Positions 16,045 to 44,117 of a stretch of 44,117 nt of DNA are shown piece after piece. The stretch covers positions 1-44,117 of the IMG/VR virus record IMGVR_UViG_3300048598_000584; one strand, 5' to 3'. This stretch comes from a virus. Its lineage: Duplodnaviria > Caudoviricetes. The notes beneath the pieces are model-generated. The model worked only from the letters and a program-made list of their open reading frames with translations, searched no databases and was not told the origin of the DNA. Positions within the stretch are counted from its first letter, which is position 1; each line of letters begins with the position of its first letter. The translations under genes and the position numbers were made by a program.

Positions 16045-17072
16045 CAGACGCCCCCGAGCTGCGCGTAATCGACCATCTTGAAGCCGCTGCGATCGATCGC
16101 GACGGCCCAGGGCGCCACCTGCTCGACCTCGTCCGCCATGACGCCGCGCTCGCGCCGGCCAAGGATCGTGTACTCGTAGACCGGCAGGCCATTTGGCAAC
16201 GTGCCGACGCGCACCACGTCGGTTTTCAGGCGGCGATCGCTGAACATCAGGATCGGCGCCGTCGACTTCATGGCGTTGATGCCGGCGGCGCCGAGCGTGC
16301 CGCCGAGGCCGAACAGGCCGCCCATCGTGGCGCTGTTGTTGGCGAGCTGCGAATTGTACTGCTGCATTTGAGCGTTGTAGTTGTTGTTCACGAGGCCGGT
16401 GTAGTCGACGCCGGCGACGTTGGTGGTCGGCGTCGACGTGTAACCCGGCTGCGAGACCTGCGAGCCGGACAGCAGCGCCGAGATCTCGTTGATCGGCTGG
16501 TTGCGCTCGGTGAGCGCCTCCTGGGCGCCCTGTCCGCGCGCGGACACGTAGAGCTGGTTGTAGGCATCGTTCTTGCCCTGCTGGAATTGCGTCATCTCTG
16601 CATTCCAAGCCGCCGAGCCAGGCTGAATGCCCTGGTTGGTCAGCCGCGTCCGCAGCGCGTCCTCGTCCCGCGCGAACTGCGGATCGAGCCTGGCCGCACC
16701 AAGCTTGGCGATCTTGTCCTCGGTCGCGGTGCTGAGATCGAGGTTGGTGCCCAAGAGCGAGCCGATCTTGGCGGACTGATCGACGCCGATCTGGCCGAGA
16801 TTGGTCTTGGTTTTGTTGGTCAGGTCGAGCAGCGCCTGCTGCTCGGGCGTCAGCGACTGGGTCGCCGTGAACTTCGGCACCGTGTAGGTCTGGCCGTCGG
16901 CGCCGGTAAAGGTGCTGGTCCCGGTCTGATCATATTTCAGCGTGCCGTACGGCGTGACCTGGTCGGTCTGGTTGAGAAGCTGCTGGGTGATCGCCGTGTT
17001 GGTGTTCATGTTGCCCTGCGCGGTCGCAGTGGCAACAGGATCCGGCGCAGCGGGCGGCGTGGGATCATTCAT
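16044..17072 (-). CDS. Virion pilot/ejection protein with C-terminal S74-like chaperone domain
   Basis: Q/N-rich body; FSDRRLKTD...GLPVYEY...GVMADEV...VDY; start MNDPTPP. Confidence 0.8.
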   Translation of the reverse strand: MNDPTPPAAPDPVATATAQGNMNTNTAITQQLLNQTDQVTPYGTLKYDQTGTSTFTGADGQTYTVPKFTATQSLTPEQQALLDLTNKTKTNLGQIGVDQSAKIGSLLGTNLDLSTATEDKIAKLGAARLDPQFARDEDALRTRLTNQGIQPGSAAWNAEMTQFQQGKNDAYNQLYVSARGQGAQEALTERNQPINEISALLSGSQVSQPGYTSTPTTNVAGVDYTGLVNNNYNAQMQQYNSQLANNSATMGGLFGLGGTLGAAGINAMKSTAPILMFSDRRLKTDVVRVGTLPNGLPVYEYTILGRRERGVMADEVEQVAPWAVAIDRSGFKMVDYAQLGGV

Positions 17073-17455
17073 CGGAACTTCCAGTCCTCTTTGAGGATGC
17101 CGAGCTCGATACCGTGCCGGCCCCTCCCGAAGTGATTGCGTTTCCGGCCTTCGGTTTGAGCGCCAAGCCGCTTTGCGTAGTCGACCACCTTTTCCTGCTC
17201 CGTCGTGATCGACATACGGAGACAGCCGAGCTGATCGAAAACATACCTGCCGACCGCGCGCAGAAAGGCGCGGTCGAAGCCCTCGCCGGCGACGGTCACG
17301 TGCACGTCGTTGCGGGTGAAGTTGTTGAAGACGACGCCGCCGATGATCTCGCCGTCGCGCTCGATGCCCATCGCCGTGAAGGGCGGGCAGATGATCGTGC
17401 TGCAGCGCTCGCCGACGAAGCGCGCCACGCAATCGTCGATGACGATCGCGCTCAC
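17069..17455 (-). CDS. GNAT-fold acetyltransferase-like virion-module protein
   Basis: GIERDGEIIGGVVFN...YVFDQLGCLR...RLGAQTEG..R...LGILKEDW. Confidence 0.75.
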   Translation of the reverse strand: MSAIVIDDCVARFVGERCSTIICPPFTAMGIERDGEIIGGVVFNNFTRNDVHVTVAGEGFDRAFLRAVGRYVFDQLGCLRMSITTEQEKVVDYAKRLGAQTEGRKRNHFGRGRHGIELGILKEDWKFR

Positions 17456-25533: not shown

Positions 25534-27791
25534 TCAAGCGACGCTGGTCTGCTCGATCTTCTTGTTGAGCAGGTCGATCTCGAGCGCGCCCTTCGCGATC
25601 TCCTGATCGTGCTTGGCCTGCATCAGCTCGATCTGCTTGTTGGTCAGCGCGATCTTGCCGTCTCGATCGACCTGCCGATCGGCCGAAGCATCGAACGCCT
25701 CCCGGGCCCGGATCTTGCGGTCCTGCTCGGCGTCGGCCGCTCTGCTCTCGGCCTCGAGCTGCTTCGCCCGCGCCTCCGCGGCGGTCCGCAGCGCGCCAGC
25801 CTGGCGTTCGGCATTCTTGGCCGCGGACGTCTCGGCATCGGTCTTGGCCTTCGCAGCCTTCGCGTCCGCATCAGCCTTGGCCTTGAGCGCCTCGGGGCTC
25901 GGCGGCTTGGGCTGGGCCGCCATCTGGACGAGCTTGTCGGCGAATTCGTCGATGACGGCCTCGAGCTGCCGGCCGGCGCGGAACTGGCTGGCGACGAATT
26001 TGAGCGTCTCCGCCGCGAGCGGCGCCGCCTCGGGCACCGTTTGCACCAGTGGCAGCGTCTCCTTCATGAAGCCGCCGACCGCGGTCACGAACTCGGTGGC
26101 GCGCTGCTTCTGCGCGTTCTCGTCGGGGGCGATCGTCGAGTCGGTCTCGATGTCGAGCACGAATGGGCGCAGCCGCTGCTCGCGCAAGAGCCCCATCACC
26201 TTCTCGATCGTCGGGACCTGCTTGAGCTTCGCGACCTGCGCCTGCAGCCCGGCGGCCTGCTGCTGGATCTGGCCGATGATCTGCTGCGCCTGCTGCGGAT
26301 TGGCCCGGGCAAGCTGCAGGACCTCCGGATCGCGCTGCGCGGTCCGGAGCTCGGCCTGCAGGCCGGCGAGTTCGCGCGCGAGCGGCGCCATCTGCTCGGC
26401 GATCTGGGCATCCGTCGCAATCTCGAGCTGCGACATGTCGAGCAGCGTCTTCGCCTGGAAGTTCTCCGCCATGATTTCGGCCGCGATGCGCACGATGTCG
26501 CGCGCCATGCGCACCATCTCGTCGCGCCGGTCCTTGATCCGGACCGAGCCATATTCGCTCTTGAGCTGCTGGGCGCCGAGCGTCTCGCTCGCCTCCGTCT
26601 GGCCGCGCATGATGTCGGAGAGGCCGGTGATCTGGTAGACGTCCTCCATCAGCTCCTTACGCAGGGCGACCAGTTCCTTGATTGTCGAAGCGACCTGGTC
26701 GATCGGCAGCCAGACGATCATGTCCTTGACGCCGCCACTGCCGACCATCGCCCAGTTGGCGATGCCGACCAGGAGCTTGTTGTTTGTCGTCGACGTCAAA
26801 GCCGCCTCGATCGCGTCGCCGATGTCGCCCGCGCCCGACGGATAGAAGCCCCTCACCTGCAGGGCGTCGGACAACGCGCCGATGCGCGCCGTGAGCTCGT
26901 TGATCTCCTCGAGCTGGTCCTTGTAGAACAGGAAGTCCGGCACCGGGATCAGCGTGCGGCGCTGCACCGTCGAATAGGCCGGCCGCGGGCAAGGGAAGAA
27001 GCCTCGAGCTTGAGGTGCGGCTCGCCCTCGTCGAGCACCAGGTCGCAGCCCTCGGCGACCCAGACCACCCTGTTCTGCGACTTCGACCAGATCTCCCAGA
27101 CGCCGGCCTTCCGCTTGCCGTCGTCGGCGTCCTCGGCGTCCTTTCGCTTGGAGAACGTCGCCTTCTTGTAGGCATCGCCCGACGTCTTCCTAAAGCGGGC
27201 GCGCATCTCCGGCCTGGTCAGCCAGGCCCGGGAAGCGACCCAGTCGACGTCCTTCCACTTGCGCTGCGGATCGTGCAGGAAGTCGCGCCTGTCCTTGTGG
27301 TCGACGCAAACCGTCTCCTTGAACTCGCGGCCCTTCCCGCTCGCCTCGTAGCGCAGCCAGGCCGCGCCACGGGCGCTGATCGTCAGATCGTCGCGAACCA
27401 GTCGCATGACCTGGTCAATGTCCTCGAGCTCGAACGAAACGATCGTCGAGCGCTCGAGCAGCTCAGAGGCGACGCGCGGCACGGCGCGGCGATCGCGGAA
27501 GCGCGGCACCACCACCGGCACCGGCGGCCGCGAATAGATCGACGGGCCCAGCACCGAGACGTTGGCCCAGAACAGCTGGAATTGCCGGTCGCGCGCAACG
27601 TTTGCGAGTCGCTCGAGCTCGGCATACTGCTTATCGATGTTGTCGCATTTGGCCTGATAGGTCTCGAACACGCGCTCGGCGTCGTCGAGCATCTTGAGCC
27701 ACGCCTTCGACGATCGGCCCGCCGGCGAGGCCGCGGCCTCCTCGCCACTCTCGCCGTCCGGCAGCTGGTCGTTCTCGAAACGCTCGGCCAT
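25534..27791 (-). pseudogene. Portal protein split by a 1-bp deletion at about 27002 (real lesion or sequence error)
   Basis: Adding one G joins ...EPHLKLE to GFFPCPRPAYSTVQRRTLIPVPD...; located after TerL. Confidence 0.8.
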
Positions 27792-31241: not shown

Positions 31242-31446
31242 GAAGCCGAATCCCTTCAAAGTTGGCGACTACGTTCGCCGGCGCCTCGGCACATTGGGCG
31301 GGACCGGCAAGGTTGGGCTCGTTACCGCGGTCGTCATGAAGGGCGACCATGAGTGCCTGACGGTCGATTTCGGCGATCGGCGCGAAACCTTTGCGTGGTC
31401 TACCTACGAAGTCCCGCGCCGCAGAGACGGACGTCATATCCTATAA
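31225..31446 (+). CDS. Small SH3/KOW-like protein (moron)
   Basis: FKVGDYVRR...GKVGLV...LTVDFG. Confidence 0.6.
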   Translation: MTSTSRKPNPFKVGDYVRRRLGTLGGTGKVGLVTAVVMKGDHECLTVDFGDRRETFAWSTYEVPRRRDGRHIL

Positions 31447-32370
31447 AAATCCGCCGCCGGCGTGATCGTCGAAATCGGTCTCGCGCCGGTCGTAGATCTT
31501 GAGCGTATCGACCTTCTTGTGGCGCGTGATCTTCATGATCTTCAGCGCGTCGACCTTGTCGTCCAGCGCCGAGGTCACGAAGCCGGCCCGCATCGAGTGG
31601 CCGGAGAAGATCCGCTCGTCCAGGCCGGCCGCCTTGACGGCCCGCTTCACCACCCGCGCCACCGAGCGATCCGAAAGTGGGGCTGACCCCACCTTCCCGT
31701 GCCGATCGACCTCGCGGAAGATTGGCCCCTCGGCGATGCCGGCGGCCTCGAGCCACGCGTCGAGGGCGTCGACGGGCCGCAGCTGGCGGCCGTTCGGCAC
31801 CGGGAGCTCCTCGCCCTTCCCTTCCTGGTCGGTCTTGGAAGCCTCGATGTGAAGCACAATGCCGCGGGCGCGGCGCTCGATGTGATGCACATGTAAAGCG
31901 GTCAGCTCGGATCTGCGCAGAGCCGCGGCGAAACTGACAACCAAAATCGCCCGATCTCGCAAGCCGGCGAGCGTTTTTGGCAAGCTGTGAATCACACGGA
32001 CGAGCAGCTCGGCCGTGGTCGGCGCCTTTCGGGTCGGCTTGGCGCCCAGGGTGCGGCGGATGCCACGCATGGTCGCCTTCACGCCTTCGGCGCTGGTCGG
32101 CGGCGGGTCGAATCGGGCGGCGCGATGGGCCGCGGCGATCGCGGCGACTCGCCGCTGAATGGTGGATGTCTTGCTGCCGCTGTCGGCGAGCTGCGCCAGG
32201 TAGCGCGCGATGGTTTCCGGCTCGGCCGGGAGCGGTTGCTCGAGGACCTGGCCGCACCAGGTGGTGAAGTCGGCCCAGTCCGAGCTGTAGGCCCGCCTGG
32301 TGTTGCTCGAGCTTGAGGCCGCGAGATAGGCTCGCACCGAGGCCATCGGGTCGACGAGCTCGGTGGACAT
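31441..32370 (-). CDS. Cre-like tyrosine recombinase
   Basis: N-terminal NTRRAYSSDW..F..WC; catalytic ALRRSE, SKTD, GHSMRAG, TRH and IY. Confidence 0.92.
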   Translation of the reverse strand: MSTELVDPMASVRAYLAASSSSNTRRAYSSDWADFTTWCGQVLEQPLPAEPETIARYLAQLADSGSKTSTIQRRVAAIAAAHRAARFDPPPTSAEGVKATMRGIRRTLGAKPTRKAPTTAELLVRVIHSLPKTLAGLRDRAILVVSFAAALRRSELTALHVHHIERRARGIVLHIEASKTDQEGKGEELPVPNGRQLRPVDALDAWLEAAGIAEGPIFREVDRHGKVGSAPLSDRSVARVVKRAVKAAGLDERIFSGHSMRAGFVTSALDDKVDALKIMKITRHKKVDTLKIYDRRETDFDDHAGGGFL

Positions 32371-33597: not shown

Positions 33598-34212
33598 TCA
33601 GACGTCGACGAAGCGCACCAGGTGCGGCTCGATCGGCCAGCTCCTCCGTCCGAAGATTTCAGTCTCGAGGCTCACCTCGATCCGGCCGCGCGCATCCAGC
33701 CCCTCGATCGTGCCGAGCAAGCGGCGCGTCATGATGTCAGCCCAGACCTGGCGTCCGCGGTGGTAGGGGCTCTCCTCCTTCTTCGCGAGCTGCTTGCGCC
33801 ATTTGCGGTCCTTGATAGCTTCGACCTCGCGGATGATCTCGATCACGCGATCGGGCACCAGTGCCGGCTTGAGGTCGCCCATCATCATCACGAAGTCGTC
33901 GACGTCGCGCAGCTCGCGCACCAGGCAAAAGGCCTCGGCGCTCAACGGCAGCTGTACAAAAATCCGATCGCCGAGCAACGGCTCCTCGATCTCGCGCTTA
34001 CGCCGGCGGCCGGCTGCAATCGAGCGATGCTGCACCGGCAGGTAGGGCTTGAGCGCCAGGCCCTCCATCTCCTTGACGACGAGATGAGCCCGATGCGGAT
34101 GCGTGCGCACGATGTGCCAGAACAGAGGCCCGGACAACAGCAACGGCCGCGGCCGCGAGATCCGCGCGAAGCCGGCGTGGTCCCCGATCTTGCAGTTGAG
34201 CGGGTCAAACAC
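33598..34212 (-). CDS. NusG/RfaH-family antitermination factor (phage paralog)
   Basis: NGN: WHIVRTHP...YLP...EEPLLGDRIFV...VDDFV...PALVPDRVI; KOW-like C-terminus with EIFGR; lambda Q position. Confidence 0.85.
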   Translation of the reverse strand: MFDPLNCKIGDHAGFARISRPRPLLLSGPLFWHIVRTHPHRAHLVVKEMEGLALKPYLPVQHRSIAAGRRRKREIEEPLLGDRIFVQLPLSAEAFCLVRELRDVDDFVMMMGDLKPALVPDRVIEIIREVEAIKDRKWRKQLAKKEESPYHRGRQVWADIMTRRLLGTIEGLDARGRIEVSLETEIFGRRSWPIEPHLVRFVDV

Positions 34213-35157: not shown

Positions 35158-35409
35158 ATGAAAACGATCGTCCTGACCCACTCGGCCGCGAAAGACCTGG
35201 ATGCTTTGCCGCAGGATGCGCGGGACAGCGTCAGCGCGGGCCTTCACCGCTACGCCGTGACGGGCCAGGGCGATGTCAGGAAGCTCGCCGGCCGCGATGG
35301 ATATCGCCTGCGGATTGGCGCCTATCGCGTCATCTTCGAGGAGGACGCCGCCACCATCCTGGCGATCTACATCGGCCGCCGCGCCACGACCACTTATGGG
35401 AGAAACTGA
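35158..35409 (+). CDS. RelE/ParE-family toxin
   Basis: AAKDLDALP...GDVRKLAG..GYRLRIGAYRVIF...IGRR...Y. Confidence 0.9.
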   Translation: MKTIVLTHSAAKDLDALPQDARDSVSAGLHRYAVTGQGDVRKLAGRDGYRLRIGAYRVIFEEDAATILAIYIGRRATTTYGRN

Positions 35410-35410
35410 G

Positions 35411-35806
35411 ATGCCTCCGATCCGCCCACAGACCATCCGAACCAGTTCCGGCGAGGAGCTGGTCGTGCTCACCCGCGCCGAGTTCGACGCGCTCGCGGCC
35501 GCCGCCGCCGAACACATCGAGGACGCCGACGATGTCGCCGTCTATGACGCCCGCAAGGCCGCGCTGCAGGCGGAGGACAACCCCATCCTGCCGGCCGAGG
35601 TCAGCGCCGCCATGCTCGCCGGAGACAGCCTGTTGCGGGCGCTCCGCCGCTGGAAGGGGATCACCCAGGCCGAGCTCGCGGAGCGGACCGGGCTCGCGCA
35701 GGGCTACATCAGCGACCTGGAGACCGGCCGCAAGACCGGCACGGCCGACACTCTGCGCGCGATCGCCGGCGCCCTCGAGGTCGACTCAGTATGGCTGGCG
35801 CCGTGA
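35411..35806 (+). CDS. XRE-HTH antitoxin (toxin-first order)
   Basis: GEELVVLTRAEFDAL N-terminus; LRRWKGITQAELAERTGLAQGYISDLETG. Confidence 0.9.
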   Translation: MPPIRPQTIRTSSGEELVVLTRAEFDALAAAAAEHIEDADDVAVYDARKAALQAEDNPILPAEVSAAMLAGDSLLRALRRWKGITQAELAERTGLAQGYISDLETGRKTGTADTLRAIAGALEVDSVWLAP

Positions 35807-36052: not shown

Positions 36053-37158
36053 GACGCGCTCCTCTTTCGCTCGCCCGGGCGCGGCGGCATCAGGTGCAAC
36101 TCGGGGCCCTTCCGCGCCGTCGCGACATGCCGCCGCCACTGGTCGGTGATGATGGTGTGGAAGCGCGCCCCGATATAGCCCGCCTTGTCGGCAGCCTGGA
36201 TGATCGCCGCCAGCGCCTCCTCGTCGTCGAGTTCGCGGCGCCACCGCTCGATGTAGGTCTCCGCGAGCTGCGGGCGAATCTGCAGGTACTCGACCAGCAT
36301 TCGCGCGCCTTCGGTGTCGACCCAAAGGCGGGCTTGCCTGGCGCTAGCGCTGCCCTCGCCAGGATCGCCCTCCGGCGAGCCTTCGGTCTCGCCCCGGGCG
36401 CCGTCCGCAGAGTTGTCTACAGCAGAGGATTTGCTCTCCTCTAAAACTGTTCTCTTCTCTGGCGTGACCGTCACAATGTCACAACGGTCACTTTGTGACC
36501 GTTCGGACCCAAGCATCGGTGCTGCGGCACCGATCCGGTCACGTTGTGACATTCGTGACGTCGGTGGAGTTGTGGACAAGTCGCCGCGCGCTGTGGACAA
36601 CTCGGCCCGCGCGAGCCGGTCTTGCAGGCTCGCGAGCTCGGCGTCGGAGATGCCTTTGAGCGTCACCTCGATCGACAGTCGTTCCTCCGTCGTCACCTTC
36701 CCCTGGCGCGCCAGCCGCACGAGCAGCTCGCGGATCGCCTTGCGCGTGCGCGACCGCCGCTTGCGGGTGCGGACGTCCTCGGCATCCTCTTCCCGGTCTG
36801 GGTTGCGGTCCCAGAAGCTCGAGATGTGGCGATCAGAGATCCAGCCAATCTTCTCGTCCTCGAGCGCTGCAAAGATGCGCGCGGCTTCGTCTGAGGCCAT
36901 GCCGAGCGCCAGACCAAACTCGTCCGCGTCGAACTGCTCGACGCTGCCGCGCTGCAGCCCATGATTGGCGGCGTTGTTGGCAATCTCCTCGAGCCGATTC
37001 ACGAAGGCCAGCACCTGGTAGAGCGGCAGGTTGCAGCGTTGCGCGACCAGCCGCCACAGCGGCATATCCGAAAAGCCGTTGTCCCGGCGGCTCCACGTGT
37101 ACTTGCGGTGCCGCTTCGCCTGCGCAGCCTTGTCATAGGTCTGGCCGATCTGCTTCAC
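36049..37158 (-). CDS. Phage replication initiator (O-like)
   Basis: N-terminal WSRRDNG...WRLVA; RTRKRRSR; internal iteron linker; position after cro and MTase. Confidence 0.7.
   Translation of the reverse strand: MKQIGQTYDKAAQAKRHRKYTWSRRDNGFSDMPLWRLVAQRCNLPLYQVLAFVNRLEEIANNAANHGLQRGSVEQFDADEFGLALGMASDEAARIFAALEDEKIGWISDRHISSFWDRNPDREEDAEDVRTRKRRSRTRKAIRELLVRLARQGKVTTEERLSIEVTLKGISDAELASLQDRLARAELSTARGDLSTTPPTSRMSQRDRIGAAAPMLGSERSQSDRCDIVTVTPEKRTVLEESKSSAVDNSADGARGETEGSPEGDPGEGSASARQARLWVDTEGARMLVEYLQIRPQLAETYIERWRRELDDEEALAAIIQAADKAGYIGARFHTIITDQWRRHVATARKGPELHLMPPRPGERKRSAS
36413..36600. repeat. Putative replication origin inside rep
   Basis: Eight GTCAC/GTGAC pentamers (36464-36559), palindrome AACGGTCAC-TTT-GTGACCGTT, DnaA-box-like TGTGGACAA x2 and TTGTCTACA, pyrimidine-rich tract 36431-36460. 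Confidence 0.65.
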
Positions 37159-37859
37159 GCGGGCGCCCCCAGCGTCACGGTCGCGTCGAACTTGCCGGCC
37201 TCAAAGCCCCAGGTGTCCCAGCCCGGGCGTGAGGTCCGCGAGAACAGCTCGACGCGGCGCGCGTTCGGATACCAGCGCTCGCAGAACTGGTAGGCCTCCT
37301 CCGGCTTGCGCGAGTGCTCGCGTGCCAGGCCCTCGATCAGGTTGCGCTCGCGCCTGGTCGTCGGCGGGCTGCCGATGATGCCGATCAGGAACGGCTCGCA
37401 TGCCGAGCGCAGCCGATAGCCGGTCCCGAAGGCCGTCTTGCCGTGCCGCGTCCTCTTGTGCCAGGCGCCGCCGGTGACGTAGCGGAAGCCCCAGGCCTTG
37501 AGACAGGCGCCGATCGGCGAGTACGACGCGTCGGCGCCCTTGAAGTGCCGCTTGGGATCGCCACCGTTGAGCAGCAGCGGCCACGTGCAGAACACCACGG
37601 CCACGCATTTGGGCGAGGCGAGCTGATTGACCGGCAGCGCCATTAGCTTCGGCCAGCTCATGGAGCCGTAGTAGCGCGCGAAGCTCTTGCCCTCGCCCTT
37701 CGGCGAGCGCATCTCCGTCGGCCACGGCGCGTCGATGAAAAGCAGATCGTAGCCGAAGGGTCGCAGCGCGCCGAACGGCCAGCTGCGGGGATCACCATCG
37801 AAACGCTCGGCAACTGTCTCGCCGCGGACGTCGAACGGATGCGCGGCGCCTTCCATCAT
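37155..37859 (-). CDS. MT-A70 family adenine methyltransferase
   Basis: YDLLFIDAPW, WGFRYVTGGAWHK, GTGYRLRSACEPFLIG, REHSRKPEE, ELFSR..RPGWDTWG. Confidence 0.92.
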   Translation of the reverse strand: MMEGAAHPFDVRGETVAERFDGDPRSWPFGALRPFGYDLLFIDAPWPTEMRSPKGEGKSFARYYGSMSWPKLMALPVNQLASPKCVAVVFCTWPLLLNGGDPKRHFKGADASYSPIGACLKAWGFRYVTGGAWHKRTRHGKTAFGTGYRLRSACEPFLIGIIGSPPTTRRERNLIEGLAREHSRKPEEAYQFCERWYPNARRVELFSRTSRPGWDTWGFEAGKFDATVTLGAPA

Positions 37860-38053
37860 GCGAAGCGGAGCTCAAAGGGCGGCGCTGTGAAGATGTCGGC
37901 CGCGGCCGGCGCGCGCGCGATTTGCGAGATCGCGATCGCGGCGGCAAAGGCGAGCGCGACAGCAACCCAGAATGTGACGCGGTCGATCTGCGGCAGCTCG
38001 ACGAAGAATTGGTGGATGGCGGTACGGCGCCAGCGATCGCGCAGAAGTTTCAT
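37856..38053 (-). CDS. Small single-TM protein
   Basis: Hydrophobic VTFWVAVALAFAAAIAI; ATGA overlap with MTase. Confidence 0.55.
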   Translation of the reverse strand: MKLLRDRWRRTAIHQFFVELPQIDRVTFWVAVALAFAAAIAISQIARAPAAADIFTAPPFELRFA

Positions 38054-38208
38054 CGCGGCATCAGCCACTTGGAGGGAAAGACGAGAAAACGCGACGCAAC
38101 ACACAAAACGCAAAAATAGTTATCCACAGACCTCTCCGGGCCTTGCGCCCGATTCGACTCTATGTCTGCAGGCGTGATGACTCCGCGGCATGTACACGCG
38201 TAGCCGCA

Positions 38209-38463
38209 TCACGCCGCAGCCTGCTTCATCTCGGGAATGGTCACCTGCCCCCATAGCGATGGATGAGCGCGCAGCCGTTTCTTCTGCAGTGCCCATGTCA
38301 TCACGAGGAAGTAGCGGGAGGGAAAGTTCTTCGCTCTCCCCCAACCCGACACGAGCTTGTAGGCGGCGCCAGTCAGTCCCGCGACCGCGCGAAGCCCACC
38401 AAGCGCCTCGATCACATCCGCGGTCGTATGCAGCGACCGCACGTCCCTACGACTCATCGCCAT
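38209..38463 (-). CDS. Cro-like regulator
   Basis: TTADVIEALGGLRAVAGLTG....VSGW....FP; divergent from cI. Confidence 0.8.
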   Translation of the reverse strand: MAMSRRDVRSLHTTADVIEALGGLRAVAGLTGAAYKLVSGWGRAKNFPSRYFLVMTWALQKKRLRAHPSLWGQVTIPEMKQAAA

Positions 38464-38469
38464 CGAATC

Positions 38470-38498
38470 GGAATAATCCGAGTTTCACGGATTTGCAA
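38470..38498 (-). promoter_or_regulatory. PR-like promoter with operator ATCCGA-GTTTC-ACGGAT (38476-38492)
   Basis: TTGCAA-17-TATTCC; the operator fills the spacer; cro ATG 6 nt downstream. Confidence 0.65.
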
Positions 38499-38553
38499 CG
38501 ACCCGAACATGCTCGATAGCTTCGAATCCCTTGCGCGTTCACCTTTTGGCGCC

Positions 38554-38871
38554 ATGGCAAGGAAGAAAACATCAGCGCCCGCAGAGCGGCAGACTGAAGA
38601 TCGACTGGAAGATCAGAGCGATCGGCTCAAGCGTTTGCGCAAAATGCTCGGCTACGAAACCGCGGCTGCTTTCTCCGTGTTCCTCGAACTTGGCTACACC
38701 ACATACCATCCGTTCGAGAAAGGCCAGCTCCTCAGTCGCGACGCTGCTTTCCGACTGGTACGCAAGATTCCGGGCCTAACGCTCGATTGGCTTTACTTTG
38801 GCAAACCCGATGGACTGCCGCTTGAGCTAGCGCGACGCCTGGGCGTCTTTGGAAATCGCAATACGGACTGA
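38554..38871 (+). CDS. CI-like XRE repressor without S24 peptidase domain
   Basis: RLKRLRKMLGYETAAAFS...TYHPFEKG...GLTLDWLYFG; 105 aa. Confidence 0.8.
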   Translation: MARKKTSAPAERQTEDRLEDQSDRLKRLRKMLGYETAAAFSVFLELGYTTYHPFEKGQLLSRDAAFRLVRKIPGLTLDWLYFGKPDGLPLELARRLGVFGNRNTD

Positions 38872-39035
38872 TCTTTGCGGCTTTCCGGCGGTGTCGGATC
38901 CGGCAATTCACCGTCCAAGAAGCGTATGAGTTGTTCGGCACAACTCAGAATAGCAAGAGCATCTTCCGTTTCCTCTGGCAGTTGCGCGGCTATTTGAAGC
39001 GCTTGCCGCTGCCGCCATCTTTCCTTTGCTTCCAT
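38793..39035 (-). CDS. Small protein convergent with and overlapping cI
   Basis: GGGA RBS; RQALQIAAQLPEETEDALAIL motif. Confidence 0.6.
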   Translation of the reverse strand: MEAKERWRQRQALQIAAQLPEETEDALAILSCAEQLIRFLDGELPDPTPPESRKDQSVLRFPKTPRRRASSSGSPSGLPK

Positions 39036-39127
39036 AGTCCCAAGCCCCCGGGCACGCACAAGCTCGAACACGCGCGCACTTCAAGGTAGCCACATCGGTT
39101 AACTGCCCGCACCAACCATTTTGGGAC

Positions 39128-39184
39128 AAAATCCGAGTAATTCGGATTTTCTAGATTGTGTATCCGAATTTCTCGGATTAGCTT
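39128..39184 (+). promoter_or_regulatory. PL-like promoter with two operators ATCCGA-N5-TCGGAT (39131-39147, 39162-39178)
   Basis: TTGTGT-17-TAGCTT with a perfect operator as spacer; second perfect operator 31 bp upstream. Confidence 0.8.
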
Positions 39185-39359
39185 CCCCCTTGTCCGACGG
39201 CGAGTCGGGCGGCCGGTTGCCTAGGTGGGGCCGGTCCCTACCCGAGAATACGGCGGTCGTTTCGAAGTTCCCGCCGCTCTCGCGCGGGCCGGATTGTCCT
39301 GGCCAGCCCCGGATCGCGTTCCGGCCCGCGCTTTTCCATCACGCTCATGAGGGGAAGCC

Positions 39360-39827
39360 ATGGCGTACAATCCGCAATTCGGTTCGAAGGCGCGCGAGCG
39401 GTTGTATTCGCGCGAAGCGTTCAAGGCGCATCTGGCGGGTCGGGGCCAATACCCGATCTGCCCGCACTGCGATCTGCCCGTCACTCCCGACCAGGCCTGG
39501 GACCGCGCGCACGTCACGGTGCCCGCGGCGCTCGGCGGCAATCTCGTCGGCGTCGGGCACCGCAAGTGCAACCAGCTCGACAACAACCAGGTCGTCACGC
39601 CGATGGTCTCGCGCGCGAACGAAATTCGCAAACGTCACCTCGGCATCAAGGGCCCCGGCCTCGGCCGCCGCCCGATGCGCTGCGGCCGCCGCTCCCGCTT
39701 CAAGGCGAAAATCGGCGGCGGCATGGAGCCGCGCCTCACGCTGGCGCAGCAGCACCAGGACTTCCTGCGCCGGCGCTTCTTCATCGAGGTCGACGACATC
39801 GACGGACCGATCGAGGTGCAGCCGTGA
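39360..39827 (+). CDS. HNH/Zn-finger-like protein
   Basis: CPHC...WDRAH...ALGG...HRKCN; GAGGGG RBS. Confidence 0.75.
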   Translation: MAYNPQFGSKARERLYSREAFKAHLAGRGQYPICPHCDLPVTPDQAWDRAHVTVPAALGGNLVGVGHRKCNQLDNNQVVTPMVSRANEIRKRHLGIKGPGLGRRPMRCGRRSRFKAKIGGGMEPRLTLAQQHQDFLRRRFFIEVDDIDGPIEVQP

Positions 39828-40159
39828 GCGATCTCGAAATGACGCGCCAGCTGCGGCAGGCCGAGCTCACCAAGCAAATGGAAGCGCTCGCGCGGCTAGT
39901 CTCGATCGCCCACGGCAACACCGGCCAAAGCGCGCGCGCCGCAAACTTCCTCCTCGCCTGGTGGAATGCCGATCGCGACGGCGGCTTCAATCTCACCGAT
40001 CTCTGGAACCTCGACCAGCAGATTTGCGACGACATGATTGCGGTGTTCACGATGGTGGCGAACCATCGCCACCATGCCGACGCCTACGGGCTCCGCGACG
40101 ACTTCGAACGGCTGGTGACCGAGTGGCGCGGGCGCCGGCGGTCGGGCGGGAGGCGCTGA
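39824..40159 (+). CDS. Conserved mobile-element protein
   Basis: ALARLVSIAHGNTGQSARAANFLLAWWNA..GGFNLTDLWNLD. Confidence 0.75.
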   Translation: MSDLEMTRQLRQAELTKQMEALARLVSIAHGNTGQSARAANFLLAWWNADRDGGFNLTDLWNLDQQICDDMIAVFTMVANHRHHADAYGLRDDFERLVTEWRGRRRSGGRR

Positions 40160-40437
40160 TGCGGATCACCGCCAAATTTGGCGTCAATGCTGCTGACGCT
40201 CTGCGCCTGGTTCGCGAGGCGGAGAAGGTGCAGATCTTCCTCGGCGAAGGTGACGATCGCTTCATCCTTCAAATATCGAAGGCATCGATTGTAAGCGATC
40301 TAAAATCGGTTCCCGCGCACAGGCCCCGGCCGTGCTATCTCGACGTGGATAGTCGGACGCTCTTCTTTGGAAGCGTTCGGACCTCGCATCACGCCGAGCG
40401 CGTGAGACGCGCCGCGGCCTTGAGGGTGGCGCCATGA
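40159..40437 (+). CDS. Hypothetical protein
   Basis: TGATG coupling, GGAGG RBS. Confidence 0.6.
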   Translation: MRITAKFGVNAADALRLVREAEKVQIFLGEGDDRFILQISKASIVSDLKSVPAHRPRPCYLDVDSRTLFFGSVRTSHHAERVRRAAALRVAP

Positions 40438-40739
40438 TCCGCGCCTATTGCTACGCCTCGGGTCATATCGGGTTCGGCCGCACGATCCCCAAGGGCGCAT
40501 TGATCATTGCGCGCGGCCCGGCGAAGGAGCTGCGGGATTTCGTCGAGGTCCATGCGCGGCACGGCTACAAGACGCGCAGCGTGAACGGGCGCCCGACCAA
40601 GATCGCGGGCTCGGACATGCTGCTGGTGCCCGGCATCCCTGAAGCGGAGAGTCAGGCGCTCGCGCTCAACGCGCTGCACGCCTGGATGAAGTGGATCGGC
40701 GCCAACGCGCCGAAGGGCATCAGGGTGCACCGTCCATGA
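40434..40739 (+). CDS. Protein resembling the family annotated as host nuclease inhibitor
   Basis: AYCYASGHIGFG...ARHGY...LLVPGIPEA; function label uncertain. Confidence 0.6.
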   Translation: MIRAYCYASGHIGFGRTIPKGALIIARGPAKELRDFVEVHARHGYKTRSVNGRPTKIAGSDMLLVPGIPEAESQALALNALHAWMKWIGANAPKGIRVHRP

Positions 40740-40999
40740 CCGTCACCTGCAGCCACTGCGGCGAAGCCGAGGGCGGACACCGTCGCGCGCTCGAGGAAGT
40801 GGTCCGCCACGAGATGGTGATGGAGCGCGCCGCGGCCACCATCCTCTCGCTCTACGAGGTCCTGCACGATCGCGATGAAGCGCCCCTGCCGCCCTGGCTC
40901 GAGCGCGAGGCGATGCAGATCCACGCCGAGCTCGTCCGTCCCCAGGCGGAATTCGAGAACATCTACCACTGCCTGGTCACGCGCGGGGCCGCGCGATGA
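40736..40999 (+). CDS. Hypothetical protein
   Basis: ATGA coupling; CSHC. Confidence 0.65.
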   Translation: MTVTCSHCGEAEGGHRRALEEVVRHEMVMERAAATILSLYEVLHDRDEAPLPPWLEREAMQIHAELVRPQAEFENIYHCLVTRGAAR

Positions 41000-41217
41000 C
41001 AGCGATCATCCTCAAGTTTCCGCCCCGCGCACCCGCGCCAAGCCCTCGCGCGGAGCCGGGTCTCGTGCTGGTCCTGCCGGTGATCCGGATCGAGCGCGAG
41101 CCGAACGGCTATTCGTCGCTCGACGGCACCAGGCGCCGCCGCCAGCGCGAGCCCGTTGTCGTCTGCACCGATTTTCCGCTGATCGACGGCAGCCTCTCGG
41201 GAGGTGCCGATGACTGA
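40996..41217 (+). CDS. Hypothetical protein
   Basis: ATGA coupling; VLVLPVIRIER motif. Confidence 0.6.
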   Translation: MTAIILKFPPRAPAPSPRAEPGLVLVLPVIRIEREPNGYSSLDGTRRRRQREPVVVCTDFPLIDGSLSGGADD

Positions 41218-41494
41218 CACTGTCGTCATCCTCACCCCGCGGGAGGCCATCAAGCGCATCCGGCCCGGCGCGATCAAGGCCGTGCATCTGCTGTTTCAGG
41301 CGCGTGGAGGCCAGGTCTCGCTCGCCGAGCTTCCGAAGGTGCGCGTCAGGCACATGCTCGAGAATCTTCCGTCCGATGCGACTGTCTCGGTCGTCATCGT
41401 GGATAGCAGATTCGCCGTCATAGCTGGCGCGATCGGTCCCGTTCGCGCGGGCGAAATCTCCCTGGCCGCCGGAATCGCAAGGCGGCTCTCATGA
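41210..41494 (+). CDS. Hypothetical protein
   Basis: GGAGG RBS; overlaps upstream stop. Confidence 0.6.
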   Translation: MTDTVVILTPREAIKRIRPGAIKAVHLLFQARGGQVSLAELPKVRVRHMLENLPSDATVSVVIVDSRFAVIAGAIGPVRAGEISLAAGIARRLS

Positions 41495-41505
41495 TCATCA
41501 TTCAC

Positions 41506-41581
41506 GCGGGTATAGCTCAACGAGAGCGCCGGAGGGCACCCTCCTCCGGAGACGGTCGTATCGAATCGACAGCCCGCTCCA
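41506..41581 (+). ncRNA. tRNA-Gly-like cloverleaf (atypical or pseudo tRNA)
   Basis: GCGGGTATAGCTCA...GAGC...TCGAAT...GCCCGCTCCA; 76 nt, four arms, encoded CCA. Confidence 0.7.
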
Positions 41582-41600
41582 CCGTCTCGAGGAGGAGCTG

Positions 41601-41912
41601 ATGCGCTGCGATCCCGACGAACTGAACACGCGCCCGCGTCCCGCCGGCATGGCTTGCCAGGTCTGCGGCTGCACCGATGACAAGGCCTGCCCTGGCGGCT
41701 GCTACTGGGTCCTCGACAATCCGCCGCTCTGCTCGGCCTGCGTGACCGAAGAGGACCTCGCCGCGTCCGAGGAGACCTTCGCCATGGGCGACGGCTTTGC
41801 CTATGGCACCGAGCGCTGCCCGGCATCGTCGACGCCGGCCGCGCACGTGCTGATCTGGATCAACGACACCTCGGGCTATTGCGCGCGCTGCCGCGCGGGG
41901 TTCGTCACGTGA
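41601..41912 (+). CDS. Zn-finger protein
   Basis: CQVCGCTDDKACPGGCYWV...LCSAC and CARC; GAGGAGGAG RBS. Confidence 0.75.
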   Translation: MRCDPDELNTRPRPAGMACQVCGCTDDKACPGGCYWVLDNPPLCSACVTEEDLAASEETFAMGDGFAYGTERCPASSTPAAHVLIWINDTSGYCARCRAGFVT

Positions 41913-42133
41913 AGGATCCGCGCGTTCCCTTGCAGGCCGCCGTCTCGGTCACCACGCGGCTGGTGCCGCTGATCACCAACCGCGTGGTCACCGCAGCGCA
42001 TTCCAGCAAGCCGCAATCCTATCGCGCCTATTGTCTCGACGAGGCGATCCGCCACGCCGAGGTCCTGCTCAACGAGCTCAAGCTGCAACAGCAGCGATTG
42101 GGCTGGCCCAGCACGCGCGGAGACGCGGCATGA
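41909..42133 (+). CDS. Hypothetical protein
   Basis: GTGA overlap. Confidence 0.6.
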   Translation: MKDPRVPLQAAVSVTTRLVPLITNRVVTAAHSSKPQSYRAYCLDEAIRHAEVLLNELKLQQQRLGWPSTRGDAA

Positions 42134-42354
42134 ACAGCGGGCCGATCTGGTCGCATCCGGTCATCAGCACAGCGCACGTCGTTCGCATGACCAGGGACTA
42201 TCCGGCGGGCGTCGCTTGGTGCGTGGCGACCTGCCAGTGTGGGTGGTCCTTCCGCGCCGAGCTCGGCCTCGGTAAGGGCGCGGCACTCCGCGACGAAGCC
42301 GCGCACGAGCATTGGCGCGACGTCGTCGCCCAGGCCGTGGAGCAGACGCCATGA
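42130..42354 (+). CDS. Small CxC/H Zn-binding-like protein
   Basis: ATCQCGW...AAHEHW; ATGA coupling. Confidence 0.6.
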   Translation: MNSGPIWSHPVISTAHVVRMTRDYPAGVAWCVATCQCGWSFRAELGLGKGAALRDEAAHEHWRDVVAQAVEQTP

Positions 42355-42536
42355 AGGCGGCCGAGCGCGAGAGCGCTGCCCTCATGGCGCGCATGCTCCT
42401 GTATAGCCAGGTCGCCGAAGCGGCGATCGCCATGCGTCTGTGCGCATGTCCGCCGCCCTACGCCGCGCAGTTGCGCGAGCAGCAGCTCCGGCTGCGGCAG
42501 AACATCCAGCGCATCCGGGAGCTCGCCGCACAATGA
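42351..42536 (+). CDS. Hypothetical protein
   Basis: ATGA overlaps at both ends. Confidence 0.55.
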   Translation: MKAAERESAALMARMLLYSQVAEAAIAMRLCACPPPYAAQLREQQLRLRQNIQRIRELAAQ

Positions 42537-42940
42537 GCAAGCCCGACGAGCGCGCCGAATCGGGTGGCCTTTACGTCGGCTGGGACGAGCTGCGGGCCAA
42601 AGTCGCGCCGACGCTGGGACGTGACCGATTTCGCGCGCTCATCAGGAATGCACAGGAACATCACGGTTTTCCACCGTTCCGTGACACCTGGGGCGGTTTC
42701 TATTGGCCCAAAGTGAGGGAGTGGCTGGACTCGGACAACGGGGTTGGAACAGATGGACGGGTCGCACACGCCGCAGAAGTCGAAGACGGCCCCGAAAGCT
42801 TCAGACATGCCCCGCCGCGGAGAAAGGCCCGGGTTCAAGATCGGCCGGAACAACCTCGGATATTGGCTAGCCAGCCAGGTCACCCGCGACCCCATGGGGT
42901 TTCCCGACACTTGCATCCCGTTGCCGGTGGGCGCGACTGA
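42533..42940 (+). CDS. Excisionase-like winged-helix protein
   Basis: GFPP...WGGFYWPKVREWLD; directly precedes and overlaps integrase. Confidence 0.6.
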   Translation: MSKPDERAESGGLYVGWDELRAKVAPTLGRDRFRALIRNAQEHHGFPPFRDTWGGFYWPKVREWLDSDNGVGTDGRVAHAAEVEDGPESFRHAPPRRKARVQDRPEQPRILASQPGHPRPHGVSRHLHPVAGGRD

Positions 42941-44117
42941 CGAAGAGATCGGGGAGCTATGTCGCGGCTACACGGCGCAACTGAGGGCGCACATCGAGGC
43001 GGAAAAGAAAAGGCTCGAGACCAACGAGCCCTCGCTGACGCGCACGCGCTACGACGGCACGATCAGGACGGCATGCCAGATCTACCAGGAGCACCCGAAC
43101 TCCGCGTTCAACTACAACATCAGCCACACGACGCGGCGCAGCTATCTCGCGGATCTGAAGGTGATCATCGAGAGTGTTGGACACCGGCGGATCAAGAACG
43201 TCACGGTGCTCGACGTGCAGGCGTGGTACCGGGAGTGGCGGAAGGGCGCCGAGTACATCGACGAAAAAACCGGCGAGCATTGGTTCGGTCCGGAACGGGT
43301 GGCCCGGGCCCACAACGCGGCCGCAATGTTGCGAACGGTCCTGCGGTTCATGGCCGCTCTGCGATATGCGGACTGCAAGCTGCTCGCGGAGGAGCTCGCC
43401 AAGATCCAGTTCGAGCGGGAGGGCGCGCGCGAGCAGGAACTCACCTACGGCCAGGTGCGGGACTTCGTGCGCGCCGCCGGCGAGATGGCGGACAAGGGTC
43501 TGATTGCCCGCGATCGCGCGCTCTATCTCTCCATCGCAACGGCCGCCCAGTTCGAGTTGATGCTGCGCCAGGGCGACATCATAGGCAAATGGCAGCCCCG
43601 CAAGGAGGGCACCAAGTTTCCGTCAGGCATCACGCTGCTCCACACCGACAAGGAGACATGGGCAGGATTTTTCACCTGGGAGAAGATTCCCGGGTGGCGC
43701 TGGCGCACGCGCACGTCGAAGTCGAAATATCGGGCCGCGGTCGAGTTCGATCTGCAGATCTACGACCTGCTATTCCCGTTGCTCGAGCAGGTGCCGATGG
43801 ACGAGCGCGCGGGCGCCATCATCAAGGGCGAGCAGGGCCTGCCGATCCGCTACCGCACCTTTGTGAAGGCCTTCCGCAAGATCGCCCAGGTGGCGAAGAT
43901 CCCCGACGATGTCTGGAGCATGGATGCCCGCGCCGGCGGCGCCGGCGAAGCCGACGAGGCTGGGGTCGACACTACCCTGATCTCGGCCGGCCTGACGCAC
44001 ACCAACGTCACCACCACCGGCCGCTACTTGCGCCGGCGAGCCAAGAAGATCGTCACCATCGCCGAGGCGCGCAAGCAGTCGCGCGCCGCCGGCGACGATG
44101 AGGGAGGCACGGCGTGA
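42807..44117 (+). CDS. int: Phage tyrosine integrase
   Basis: LMLRQGD, TSKS, MDARAGG, LTH and TGRY catalytic positions; prophage end; likely start MPRRGERPG. Confidence 0.88.
   Translation: MPRRGERPGFKIGRNNLGYWLASQVTRDPMGFPDTCIPLPVGATDEEIGELCRGYTAQLRAHIEAEKKRLETNEPSLTRTRYDGTIRTACQIYQEHPNSAFNYNISHTTRRSYLADLKVIIESVGHRRIKNVTVLDVQAWYREWRKGAEYIDEKTGEHWFGPERVARAHNAAAMLRTVLRFMAALRYADCKLLAEELAKIQFEREGAREQELTYGQVRDFVRAAGEMADKGLIARDRALYLSIATAAQFELMLRQGDIIGKWQPRKEGTKFPSGITLLHTDKETWAGFFTWEKIPGWRWRTRTSKSKYRAAVEFDLQIYDLLFPLLEQVPMDERAGAIIKGEQGLPIRYRTFVKAFRKIAQVAKIPDDVWSMDARAGGAGEADEAGVDTTLISAGLTHTNVTTTGRYLRRRAKKIVTIAEARKQSRAAGDDEGGTA

Follow-up and report, generated by a model that had tools for sequence, protein, structure and literature searches.

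A rebuilt tRNA-Gly inside an open reading frame of a phage early operon is under selection as RNA and may serve as a decoy for tRNA-Gly-targeting toxins

The window analysed here, the whole stretch of 44117 bases of record IMGVR_UViG_3300048598_000584, is a complete IMG/VR provirus in which a tRNA-Gly-like element forms part of a rightward operon. The genes of this operon are small and coupled; the first is repressor-like and the last, at the right end, encodes the integrase. The head of this early operon is formed by the repressor-like gene (38644-38871, + strand) and a divergent Cro-like gene (38209-38463, - strand; P22_Cro, E 0.007), both named from weak matches together with position, and no sigma-70 promoter was detected in 38800-43000. 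The element is preceded by an early gene of 94 aa (41210-41494, +) without a family match, homologues of which also precede the element in loci L063 and L093; used as a query, this protein returned two weak, unrelated loci only. An ORF of 36 codons (41491-41601, +) spans the RNA and, as the original prediction had described, is real and joined to its neighbours on both sides, overlapping the stop of 41210-41494 through ATGA and the start of the next gene through TGATG. It comprises a 15-nt A/U-rich 5' leader with a pyrimidine at -1 (41491-41505, +), a candidate RNase P leader; the tRNA-Gly-derived RNA itself (41506-41581, +; 76 nt, with a Gly acceptor end, U73, CCA and an ACC loop); and a 3' trailer (41582-41600, +), which carries the ribosome-binding site of the next gene and, in the window only, has an alternative pairing with 41544-41557.

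The downstream gene c0 (41601-41912, +) encodes 103 aa of no family, with two Cys/His clusters that are likely to be zinc-binding; its relatives were unnamed look-alikes only, and it occurs in phages of the window lineage both with and without the element. Gene c2 (41909-42133, +; 74 aa, no confident family) accompanies the element often, though not always: in the c0 set it was present at 8/8 element loci versus 1/6 others, and it was not found in L063, L075, L076, L098 and L104, some of which are short loci. Operon and provirus end together in a tyrosine integrase gene (42744-44117, +; PF00589, E 6e-6), confirming the integrase half of a predicted downstream xis/int pair; xis is placed by position only, at 42533-42940, which has no family match. 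Elsewhere in the window, a ParE-like toxin and HTH antitoxin pair (35158-35806, +) is inserted against the direction of its operon, an MT-A70 methyltransferase gene (37155-37859, -) adjoins a replication gene, a NusG/UpxY-like antiterminator gene (33598-34212, -) lies ahead of the late genes, and a second tyrosine recombinase gene (31441-32370, -), common to 7/8 of the prophages compared, lies between early-left and packaging genes. The portal-like gene (25534-27791, -) consists of two overlapping ORFs, 26949-27791 and 25534-26967, the latter matching positions 293-700 of phrog_12082 only, which suggests a frameshift or a split.

All parts of the cloverleaf were found where they had been predicted. 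The acceptor stem (41506-41512/41571-41577) holds five G-C/C-G pairs (G1-C72, C2-G71, G3-C70, G4-C69 and G5-C68), one U-G pair and one A.A mismatch; the D stem (41515-41518/41524-41527) closes a 5-nt loop without GG; the anticodon stem (41529-41535/41543-41549) carries a 7-nt loop that has ACC (41538-41540) at its centre and lacks U33; and a T stem of 4 bp (41555-41558/41567-41570) with an 8-nt loop is followed by U73 at 41578 and an encoded CCA at 41579-41581. The Gly identity elements G1:C72, C2:G71, U73 and C35/C36 are present and U33, the D-loop GG and the canonical T loop are lost, just as had been claimed. Folded in isolation, the 76-mer gave the cloverleaf at -34.6 kcal/mol (z -2.9; equally good shuffles 1/200), and its MFE fold gains an eighth anticodon-stem pair, a G-U, closing a 5-nt loop. 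The anticodon arm of the window element is 4 nt too long and places the loop CC 2 bp further out than is usual for tRNA-Gly, and its acceptor-T helix consists of 6 pairs, a mismatch and 4 bp, as opposed to the canonical 7+5 bp. A pseudogene or undetermined call had been expected from tRNA finders; the outcome was no call at all, ARAGORN reporting 0 genes in the window and, at lowered thresholds, noise with none of the matches listed lying on the strand of the element at its coordinates, and Rfam at E<=5 giving a single unrelated chance match and no tRNA in 38000-44117. Model R1, which was built with the window sequence included, scored the element at 69.6 bits. The cloverleaf is more than a chance fold, since homologues with compensatory changes exist.

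Homologues were collected by several routes. A pattern restricted to the 5' part gave 2 true homologues among 4 matches, and the integrase query gave a third among 6 loci, while patterns of the T loop and 3' end gave matches of which, by eye after folding, 10/16 viral, 5/34 genome and 35/41 metagenome ones were true; the false positives discarded in this way were 6/16, 29/34, 6/41 and 8/11 in four sets. One locus in the 8/11 set (L040:2492-2549, -) is tRNA-like, with a GG-less D loop and an 8-nt T loop as in the element, but was rejected on its differing, non-Gly acceptor stem. The core set comprised 36 distinct sequences, window included, of which 15 constitute the window lineage, that is, prophages sharing neighbouring genes. 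Because the outer acceptor pairs, T loop and UCCA were prescribed by the patterns, their conservation in the 36 sequences is by construction. The anticodon loop and the D loop had been left free: CC, required by no pattern, was found in the anticodon loop of 36/36, and the D loop was without GG in 34/36.

A c0-protein search together with the 5'-only pattern added seven lineage members (L253, L260, L340, L348/L373, L361, L363 and L405). Among the 10 distinct lineage members found without the 3' pattern, U73 and the loop CC were each present in 10/10 and CCA in 8/10, the other two ending in CCC or CCU, whereas the 8-nt T loop was seen in 4/10, other T loops in 6/10 and the D-loop GG in 2/10. 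One of them, L405, is near canonical at the elbow, with GG kept and a 7-nt T loop; L044, L021 and L087 keep U33 and the canonical arm length. Anticodon arms otherwise range up to 7 bp with a 10-nt loop, and up to 24 nt (L348). The constant part of the RNA is the Gly acceptor end plus CC, and the elbow is broken in several ways.

Where hosts of the window lineage are named, they are Bradyrhizobium. The element was found in 2/151 genomes of this genus, the other best matches scoring ~61 bits; the 28 such loci examined were the host tRNA-Gly(CCC), which has the D-loop GG and a 7-nt T loop. Presence is also patchy within the family, 8/14 same-family loci having the element; G014, the closest integrase relative, does not have it beside that gene. 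BLAST against annotated phages gave no match over the element, and no description of this RNA was found in the literature searched, which consisted of main texts with few subscription articles among them. In a tree based on only 75 columns, the 15 lineage sequences grouped together, with three Deinococcus-type elements inside, and apart from elements linked to the DNA-modifying enzyme Mom (91/99). In L052, L056 and L114 (Deinococcus altitudinis plasmids and a metagenome contig), the element stands first in an array whose other members are odd tRNA-like genes too, a YqeY-domain gene lies near the array in L052 and L114, and no Mom was found in G012.

The 15 lineage sequences carry a clear signature of selection on the RNA. 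Paired cells amounted to 93.6% versus 84.7% after shuffling, and two-sided changes were seen at 9/19 pairs and in 21 cells versus 3.4 and 5.0; any of the pairing measures was reached by 0/500 shuffles, a control that ignores kinship among sequences that are kin, and slid-structure controls were 37-50% paired. A separate per-sequence pairing count picks the best register and leans high. Covariation was found in 4/4 tested anticodon-stem pairs and 3/4 T-stem pairs, and acceptor pairs 1, 2, 4 and 5 were invariant, partly set so by the search patterns, with pairs 6-7 often broken. Comparison of the window with five relatives gave identities of 69-88% for the element and 61-71% for the c0 gene. The peptide is not conserved, its 5' half being read in different frames by close relatives, so that a comparison of covariation with peptide conservation, proposed in the original prediction, came out in favour of the RNA. 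The cloverleaf is real and under selection. A decaying captured tRNA, or a relic of a lost mom cassette, with no present function, would fit with the patchy distribution, the want of a partner enzyme (see below), the acceptor A.A mismatch, the damaged CCA in two members and poor folding in context at 4/15 loci. However, this reading is largely refuted for the window lineage by the covariation, in a lineage that has no Mom, and both the balancing of indels to keep the frame and the higher conservation of the element than of the neighbouring gene speak against it as well; we consider it very unlikely, in line with the earlier view that this is no decaying tRNA.

Neither does the RNA look like an ordinary decoding tRNA, a second prediction upheld by the loss of GG, U33, the canonical T loop and the arm length. 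With canonical tRNA-Gly the element shares the GlyRS identity set G1-C72, C2-G71, U73, C35, C36 and CCA; in contrast, it is without the D-loop GG, the 7-nt T loop, U33, the 5-bp anticodon stem and the 7+5 bp helix, and it is missed by ARAGORN and the Rfam tRNA model. Moreover, the wobble base varies (A, U, G, C) and GGC accounts for 68-79% of the Gly codons in each of the eight phages counted; the anticodons do not follow codon use. An unusual but working decoder, resistant to host anticodon nucleases and sustaining translation, would find its best candidates in L044, L021 and L087, with U33 and a canonical arm length, and in L405 with its GG and 7-nt T loop, and phage isoacceptors do overcome PARIS and retron defences (PMC11559606). 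Nevertheless, the window arm exceeds the usual length by 4 nt and has no U33, the acceptor-T helix lacks one pair, 34/36 D loops are without GG, arms reach 24 nt and anticodons do not track codon use, and such a decoder is thus improbable.

The open frame through the RNA is itself a conserved feature. A start codon <=30 nt upstream with the frame open through the RNA was present in 22/23 lineage loci, the miss being L088, and under a loose rule 20 of the 23 were flagged as coupled to the upstream stop. An ATG <=27 nt upstream in an open frame occurred in 15/15 loci versus 2.8 expected from shuffled leaders, in a test that left out L088, the contig of which ends 10 nt after the element. The frame of entry follows element length: frame 0 serves at 16 loci with elements of 73, 76, 79 or 82 nt (3n+1) and frame 2 at four with elements of 75 nt, which makes the frame leaving the RNA constant, with L253, L017 and L088 as exceptions (the element of L104 is 76 nt). 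This frame usually continues into a small gene, c1, which is missing from the window; there, as in L363, L348 and L361, a stand-alone bridge ORF is found instead. In L257 and L258, c1 starts directly without the element, and a fixed protein partner was rejected on the grounds of its absence from the window and its presence in these element-free loci. The c1 protein (L044:1957-2220 and relatives) has AYxxGxxDG...YxxG motifs, and its nearest named Atlas clusters, DUF2623 (0.83) and ribosome modulation factor (0.81), are leads only. The simplest reading of the conserved frame is that an RNA insert would be tolerated in so tightly coupled an operon only if ribosomes cross it.

In its mRNA context the window element folds differently. 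ViennaRNA gave, for 41491-41610, an alternative fold at -44.9 kcal/mol versus -41.8 for the cloverleaf, with P(G1:C72) of ~0.001; this fold pairs the trailer with the RNA and hides the ribosome-binding site of the next gene. However, the alternative pairing was seen in 1/14 loci, the window alone, which equals the chance expectation, no conserved alternative fold was found among lineage loci, and the cloverleaf is kept in context at P>=0.83 in 9/15 of them. Conserved ribosome passage across the RNA accords with the earlier proposal, whereas a gating of the fold by ribosomes would be conjectural, the competing fold being predicted for the window. The leader has a pyrimidine at -1 in 34/36 elements (15/15 in the lineage, 23/23 in the extended lineage set) and its last 8 bases are 62% A/T in ~65% GC DNA. 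A pyrimidine at this position and an A/U-rich leader suit the preference of RNase P, and the leader features fit processing by this enzyme.

These observations would also suit a role mainly in cis, in which the element, as an RNase P cut site or an operator bound by GlyRS, divides or tunes the early mRNA before c1/c0, c2 and the integrase and is switched by crossing ribosomes. The close, in-frame start codons, the frame that follows element length, the pyrimidine at -1 in 23/23 lineage loci and the hidden ribosome-binding site of the window all agree with it. Yet any insert in a tightly coupled operon needs read-through too, the gene that is entered differs (c1, c0, others, or the stand-alone bridge of the window, L363, L348 and L361), the alternative pairing is window-only, and several elements outside the lineage were judged by eye to have a promoter-like sequence of their own in front of them or to belong to tRNA clusters. 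Nor does a cut site need the loop CC: the pure RNase P site offered by the original prediction leaves unexplained the retention of CC in loops that differ greatly in length. We therefore regard a mainly cis role as rather unlikely.

The C4 RNAs of P1/P7 and the CI RNA of P4 are immunity RNAs that are likewise cloverleaf-like and lie in a translated early prophage region, from the early transcript of which they are probably released by RNase P; in this class, sequences complementary to the loops lie up- and downstream as targets and covary with the RNA. The element resembles them as a small cloverleaf-like RNA nested in such a region, and possibly in its release by RNase P, but differs in its full tRNA-Gly identity. 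For 15 members, the longest complement within the own flanks (+-600 nt) was 5-9 nt versus cross-flank means of 7.0-8.4, and an antisense role of C4/CI type was not supported, there being neither own-flank targets above the cross-controls nor an Rfam match.

Outside the window lineage, a candidate partner enzyme could be recognised. Mom (PF25680) lies within ~1.5 kb downstream of 8/21 distinct elements, as compared to 0/80 c0 loci and 0/80 tRNA-pattern loci; the count of 8/21 rests on flanks of up to 4 kb and is a lower bound because many contigs are short. Mom transfers glycine from Gly-tRNA-Gly to DNA adenine (PMC13219725), and the Discussion and searched passages of that paper mention neither phage-encoded donor RNAs nor such a link to tRNA-Gly. 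In a Mom-first search, 2/80 loci matched model R1, L142 (4080-4170) and L143 (5908-5996), and in both the translated 5' end of mom contains a tRNA-Gly-like RNA with U73, CCA and the loop CC. Furthermore, 42/120 Mom proteins (P0001-P0120), retrieved with a query built on element-linked Moms, start with a translated T-arm/CCA motif of the GGSxPxxPL[HQ] type, which 1/120 carries further in; those N-termini have probably been shaped by the RNA and not by the protein. The Mom-linked look-alikes share with the window lineage the acceptor end, the GG-less D loop, the 8-nt T loop, the NCC loop and the nesting in a translated 5' gene end; in most of them the T stem is bulged, and a promoter-like sequence of their own is frequent. 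In contrast, the window lineage has no Mom and a separate branch in the tree of few columns, and its T loop varies. A tandem of rebuilt tRNA-Gly-like genes, both with ACC loops, occurs in a T4-like phage (L019:2375-2524; also L092), in L019 downstream of a DruA-like gene (664-1794; PF14236, E 1e-9).

Within the window lineage, the search for a glycine-using partner was negative over the material covered. Profile searches found no Mom in G000, G001 and G170 (100% complete), G005 (90%), the partial lineage records and two Bradyrhizobium genomes, and a six-frame search with the Mom profile had a best E of 1.2. Among the 75 proteins of the window and 121 representatives (105-620 aa) of clusters from six related prophages, Pfam revealed no Mom, DruA-like, Fem or shared GNAT protein and no shared transferase, although a diverged transferase could escape Pfam, PHROGs and the Mom profile used; DruA-like genes were absent from the five lineage records tested. 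The window does encode one GNAT acetyltransferase (17069-17455, -; phrog_4470, E 4.5e-21), inside the virion structural module, but its family occurs in 3/9 element-bearing versus 1/5 element-free records and is absent from the complete G001; it follows the type of head-tail module and not the element.

These findings bear on the suggestion that the RNA is a private glycyl donor for a non-ribosomal transferase, of the phage or of the host, that our searches did not recognise. The Mom neighbourhoods outside the lineage, the use of Gly-tRNA-Gly by Mom and the same nesting in mom genes all argue for such a donor, and the option, raised originally, fits the Mom-linked relatives; it fails to find its enzyme in the window lineage. 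In addition, the tree separates this lineage from the Mom-linked elements, the other T loops in 6/10 independently found members imply that the shared 8-nt loop may be convergent, and only 2/80 Mom-first loci match model R1. A donor role in the window lineage is for these reasons doubtful, if a little less so than a role mainly in cis.

A precedent for a glycine-charged RNA kept from translation exists in Staphylococcus, where the non-proteogenic tRNA-Gly NP1-NP3 serve as glycine donors for FmhB/FemA/FemB and are charged yet avoid EF-Tu and the ribosome, having changed T loops and longer anticodon stems (PMC7826273). The element shares with them the GlyRS identity, an altered T loop and an extra anticodon-stem pair with a 5-nt loop, and it may likewise be steered away from EF-Tu and the ribosome. 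On the other hand, it is phage-borne, lies inside a translated ORF and does not belong to the staphylococcal lineage, and no Fem or other partner enzyme was found among the phage proteins scanned. Where NP1-NP3 have weak A-U pairs at 49-65/50-64/51-63 (A49-U65, U50-A64, A51-U63), the element has an 8-nt T loop and a 4-bp T stem; being G-C rich and shorter by one pair, this stem does not allow these positions to be mapped. Overall, the RNA would seem to work like a non-proteogenic tRNA-Gly, yet it fails the canonical, staphylococcal, Mom-linked and C4/CI classes on the features tested.

Since the lineage lacks Mom or a shared enzyme using Gly-tRNA, within the limits of profile searches, we tentatively favour as the most likely job that of a processed, GlyRS-read, non-decoding decoy for host toxins that target tRNA-Gly, a reading drawn from sequence comparison to which we would give somewhat less than an even chance. 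A tRNA-Gly captured by a phage would have been rebuilt into a non-decoding RNA that is transcribed within the early operon, and RNase P and 3' trimming would release it from a share of the transcripts, each transcript thus serving either as mRNA or as a source of RNA. The ORF would act as a ribosome bridge; it is conserved as a read-through frame and presumably preserves translational coupling to the downstream early genes. Host GlyRS, an enzyme that reads C35, C36, U73 and the first acceptor pairs (PMC9908026), would recognise and probably charge the RNA through the identity elements it has kept, whereas the broken elbow, the short T stem and the over-long anticodon arm would keep it off EF-Tu and the ribosome. 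Unprotected by EF-Tu, the charged RNA might then be offered to enzymes that attack tRNA-Gly, and an early decoy could sequester anti-phage or toxin-antitoxin enzymes of the host, FaRel2-type toxSAS and AtaT2-type GNAT toxins being examples. FaRel2 recognises tRNA-Gly by G1-C72, C2-G71, G4-C69 and Pu5-Py68 and also modifies a minihelix, its class having been implicated in defence against phages; AtaT2 accepts no substrate other than Gly-tRNA-Gly (PMC11559606).

Several features point to this decoy: the selection on structure in a lineage without Mom, the invariance of the pairs such toxins read, the CC and U73 kept on variable arms, and a wobble base unlike codon use; patchy presence (8/14 same-family loci, 2/151 genus genomes) is what an accessory trait for counter-defence should show. 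Since an anticodon is not needed to decoy toxSAS, the retention of CC calls for a target that takes charged tRNA or for another explanation. What counts against the decoy is that the window cloverleaf is predicted to be disfavoured at equilibrium in the mRNA context, that 2/10 independently found members end in CCC or CCU, and that the window has one GNAT. More specifically, and with the same reserve as for the private donor, we speculate that Bradyrhizobium-type temperate phages may carry a glycine-charged, EF-Tu-evading sponge that RNase P sets free whenever no ribosomes cross it, for instance upon a stall caused by a toxin, and that absorbs tRNA-Gly-targeting toxins. If so, these phages would have an RNA counter-defence that triggers itself, for which no description was found in the literature searched, and the RNA would be one of many that escape tRNA finders through their position within ORFs.

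Anti-defence phage tRNAs active against PARIS and retrons, as cited in PMC11559606, are comparable in being accessory, patchily distributed tRNA-type genes with a plausible counter-defence role, but they are decoding isoacceptors that escape the toxin, whereas the element looks incapable of decoding, keeps the determinants that toxins read and would act as bait. Apart from its function, the element is a conserved tRNA-like RNA lying in frame within phage coding sequence, with both frame and fold kept by selection, and the wider set ties a rebuilt tRNA-Gly to DNA modification by Mom. As the window lineage keeps the RNA without Mom, there would be a second use for the private tRNA-Gly of a phage, and if that use is the decoy, an RNA sponge would be added to phage counter-defence.

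Related elements were also seen in other settings. Two have a context that does not look like phage, one following a PEP-CTERM gene in a gammaproteobacterial genome (L058:4001-4071, -) and one preceding an outer-membrane protein gene (L102:749-819); G013, checked alongside them, had no Mom. On ten low-GC contigs that probably derive from large phages (L077, L082, L090, L095, L103, L105, L107, L109, L115 and L081), the element lies near SET, IF3, NUDIX and APS-kinase genes, with no Mom within the flanks examined. Finally, the element at L018:2383-2449 (the same as L002:1434-1500) has a leader made up of a four-copy 15-nt tandem repeat, which is in frame with the downstream gene.
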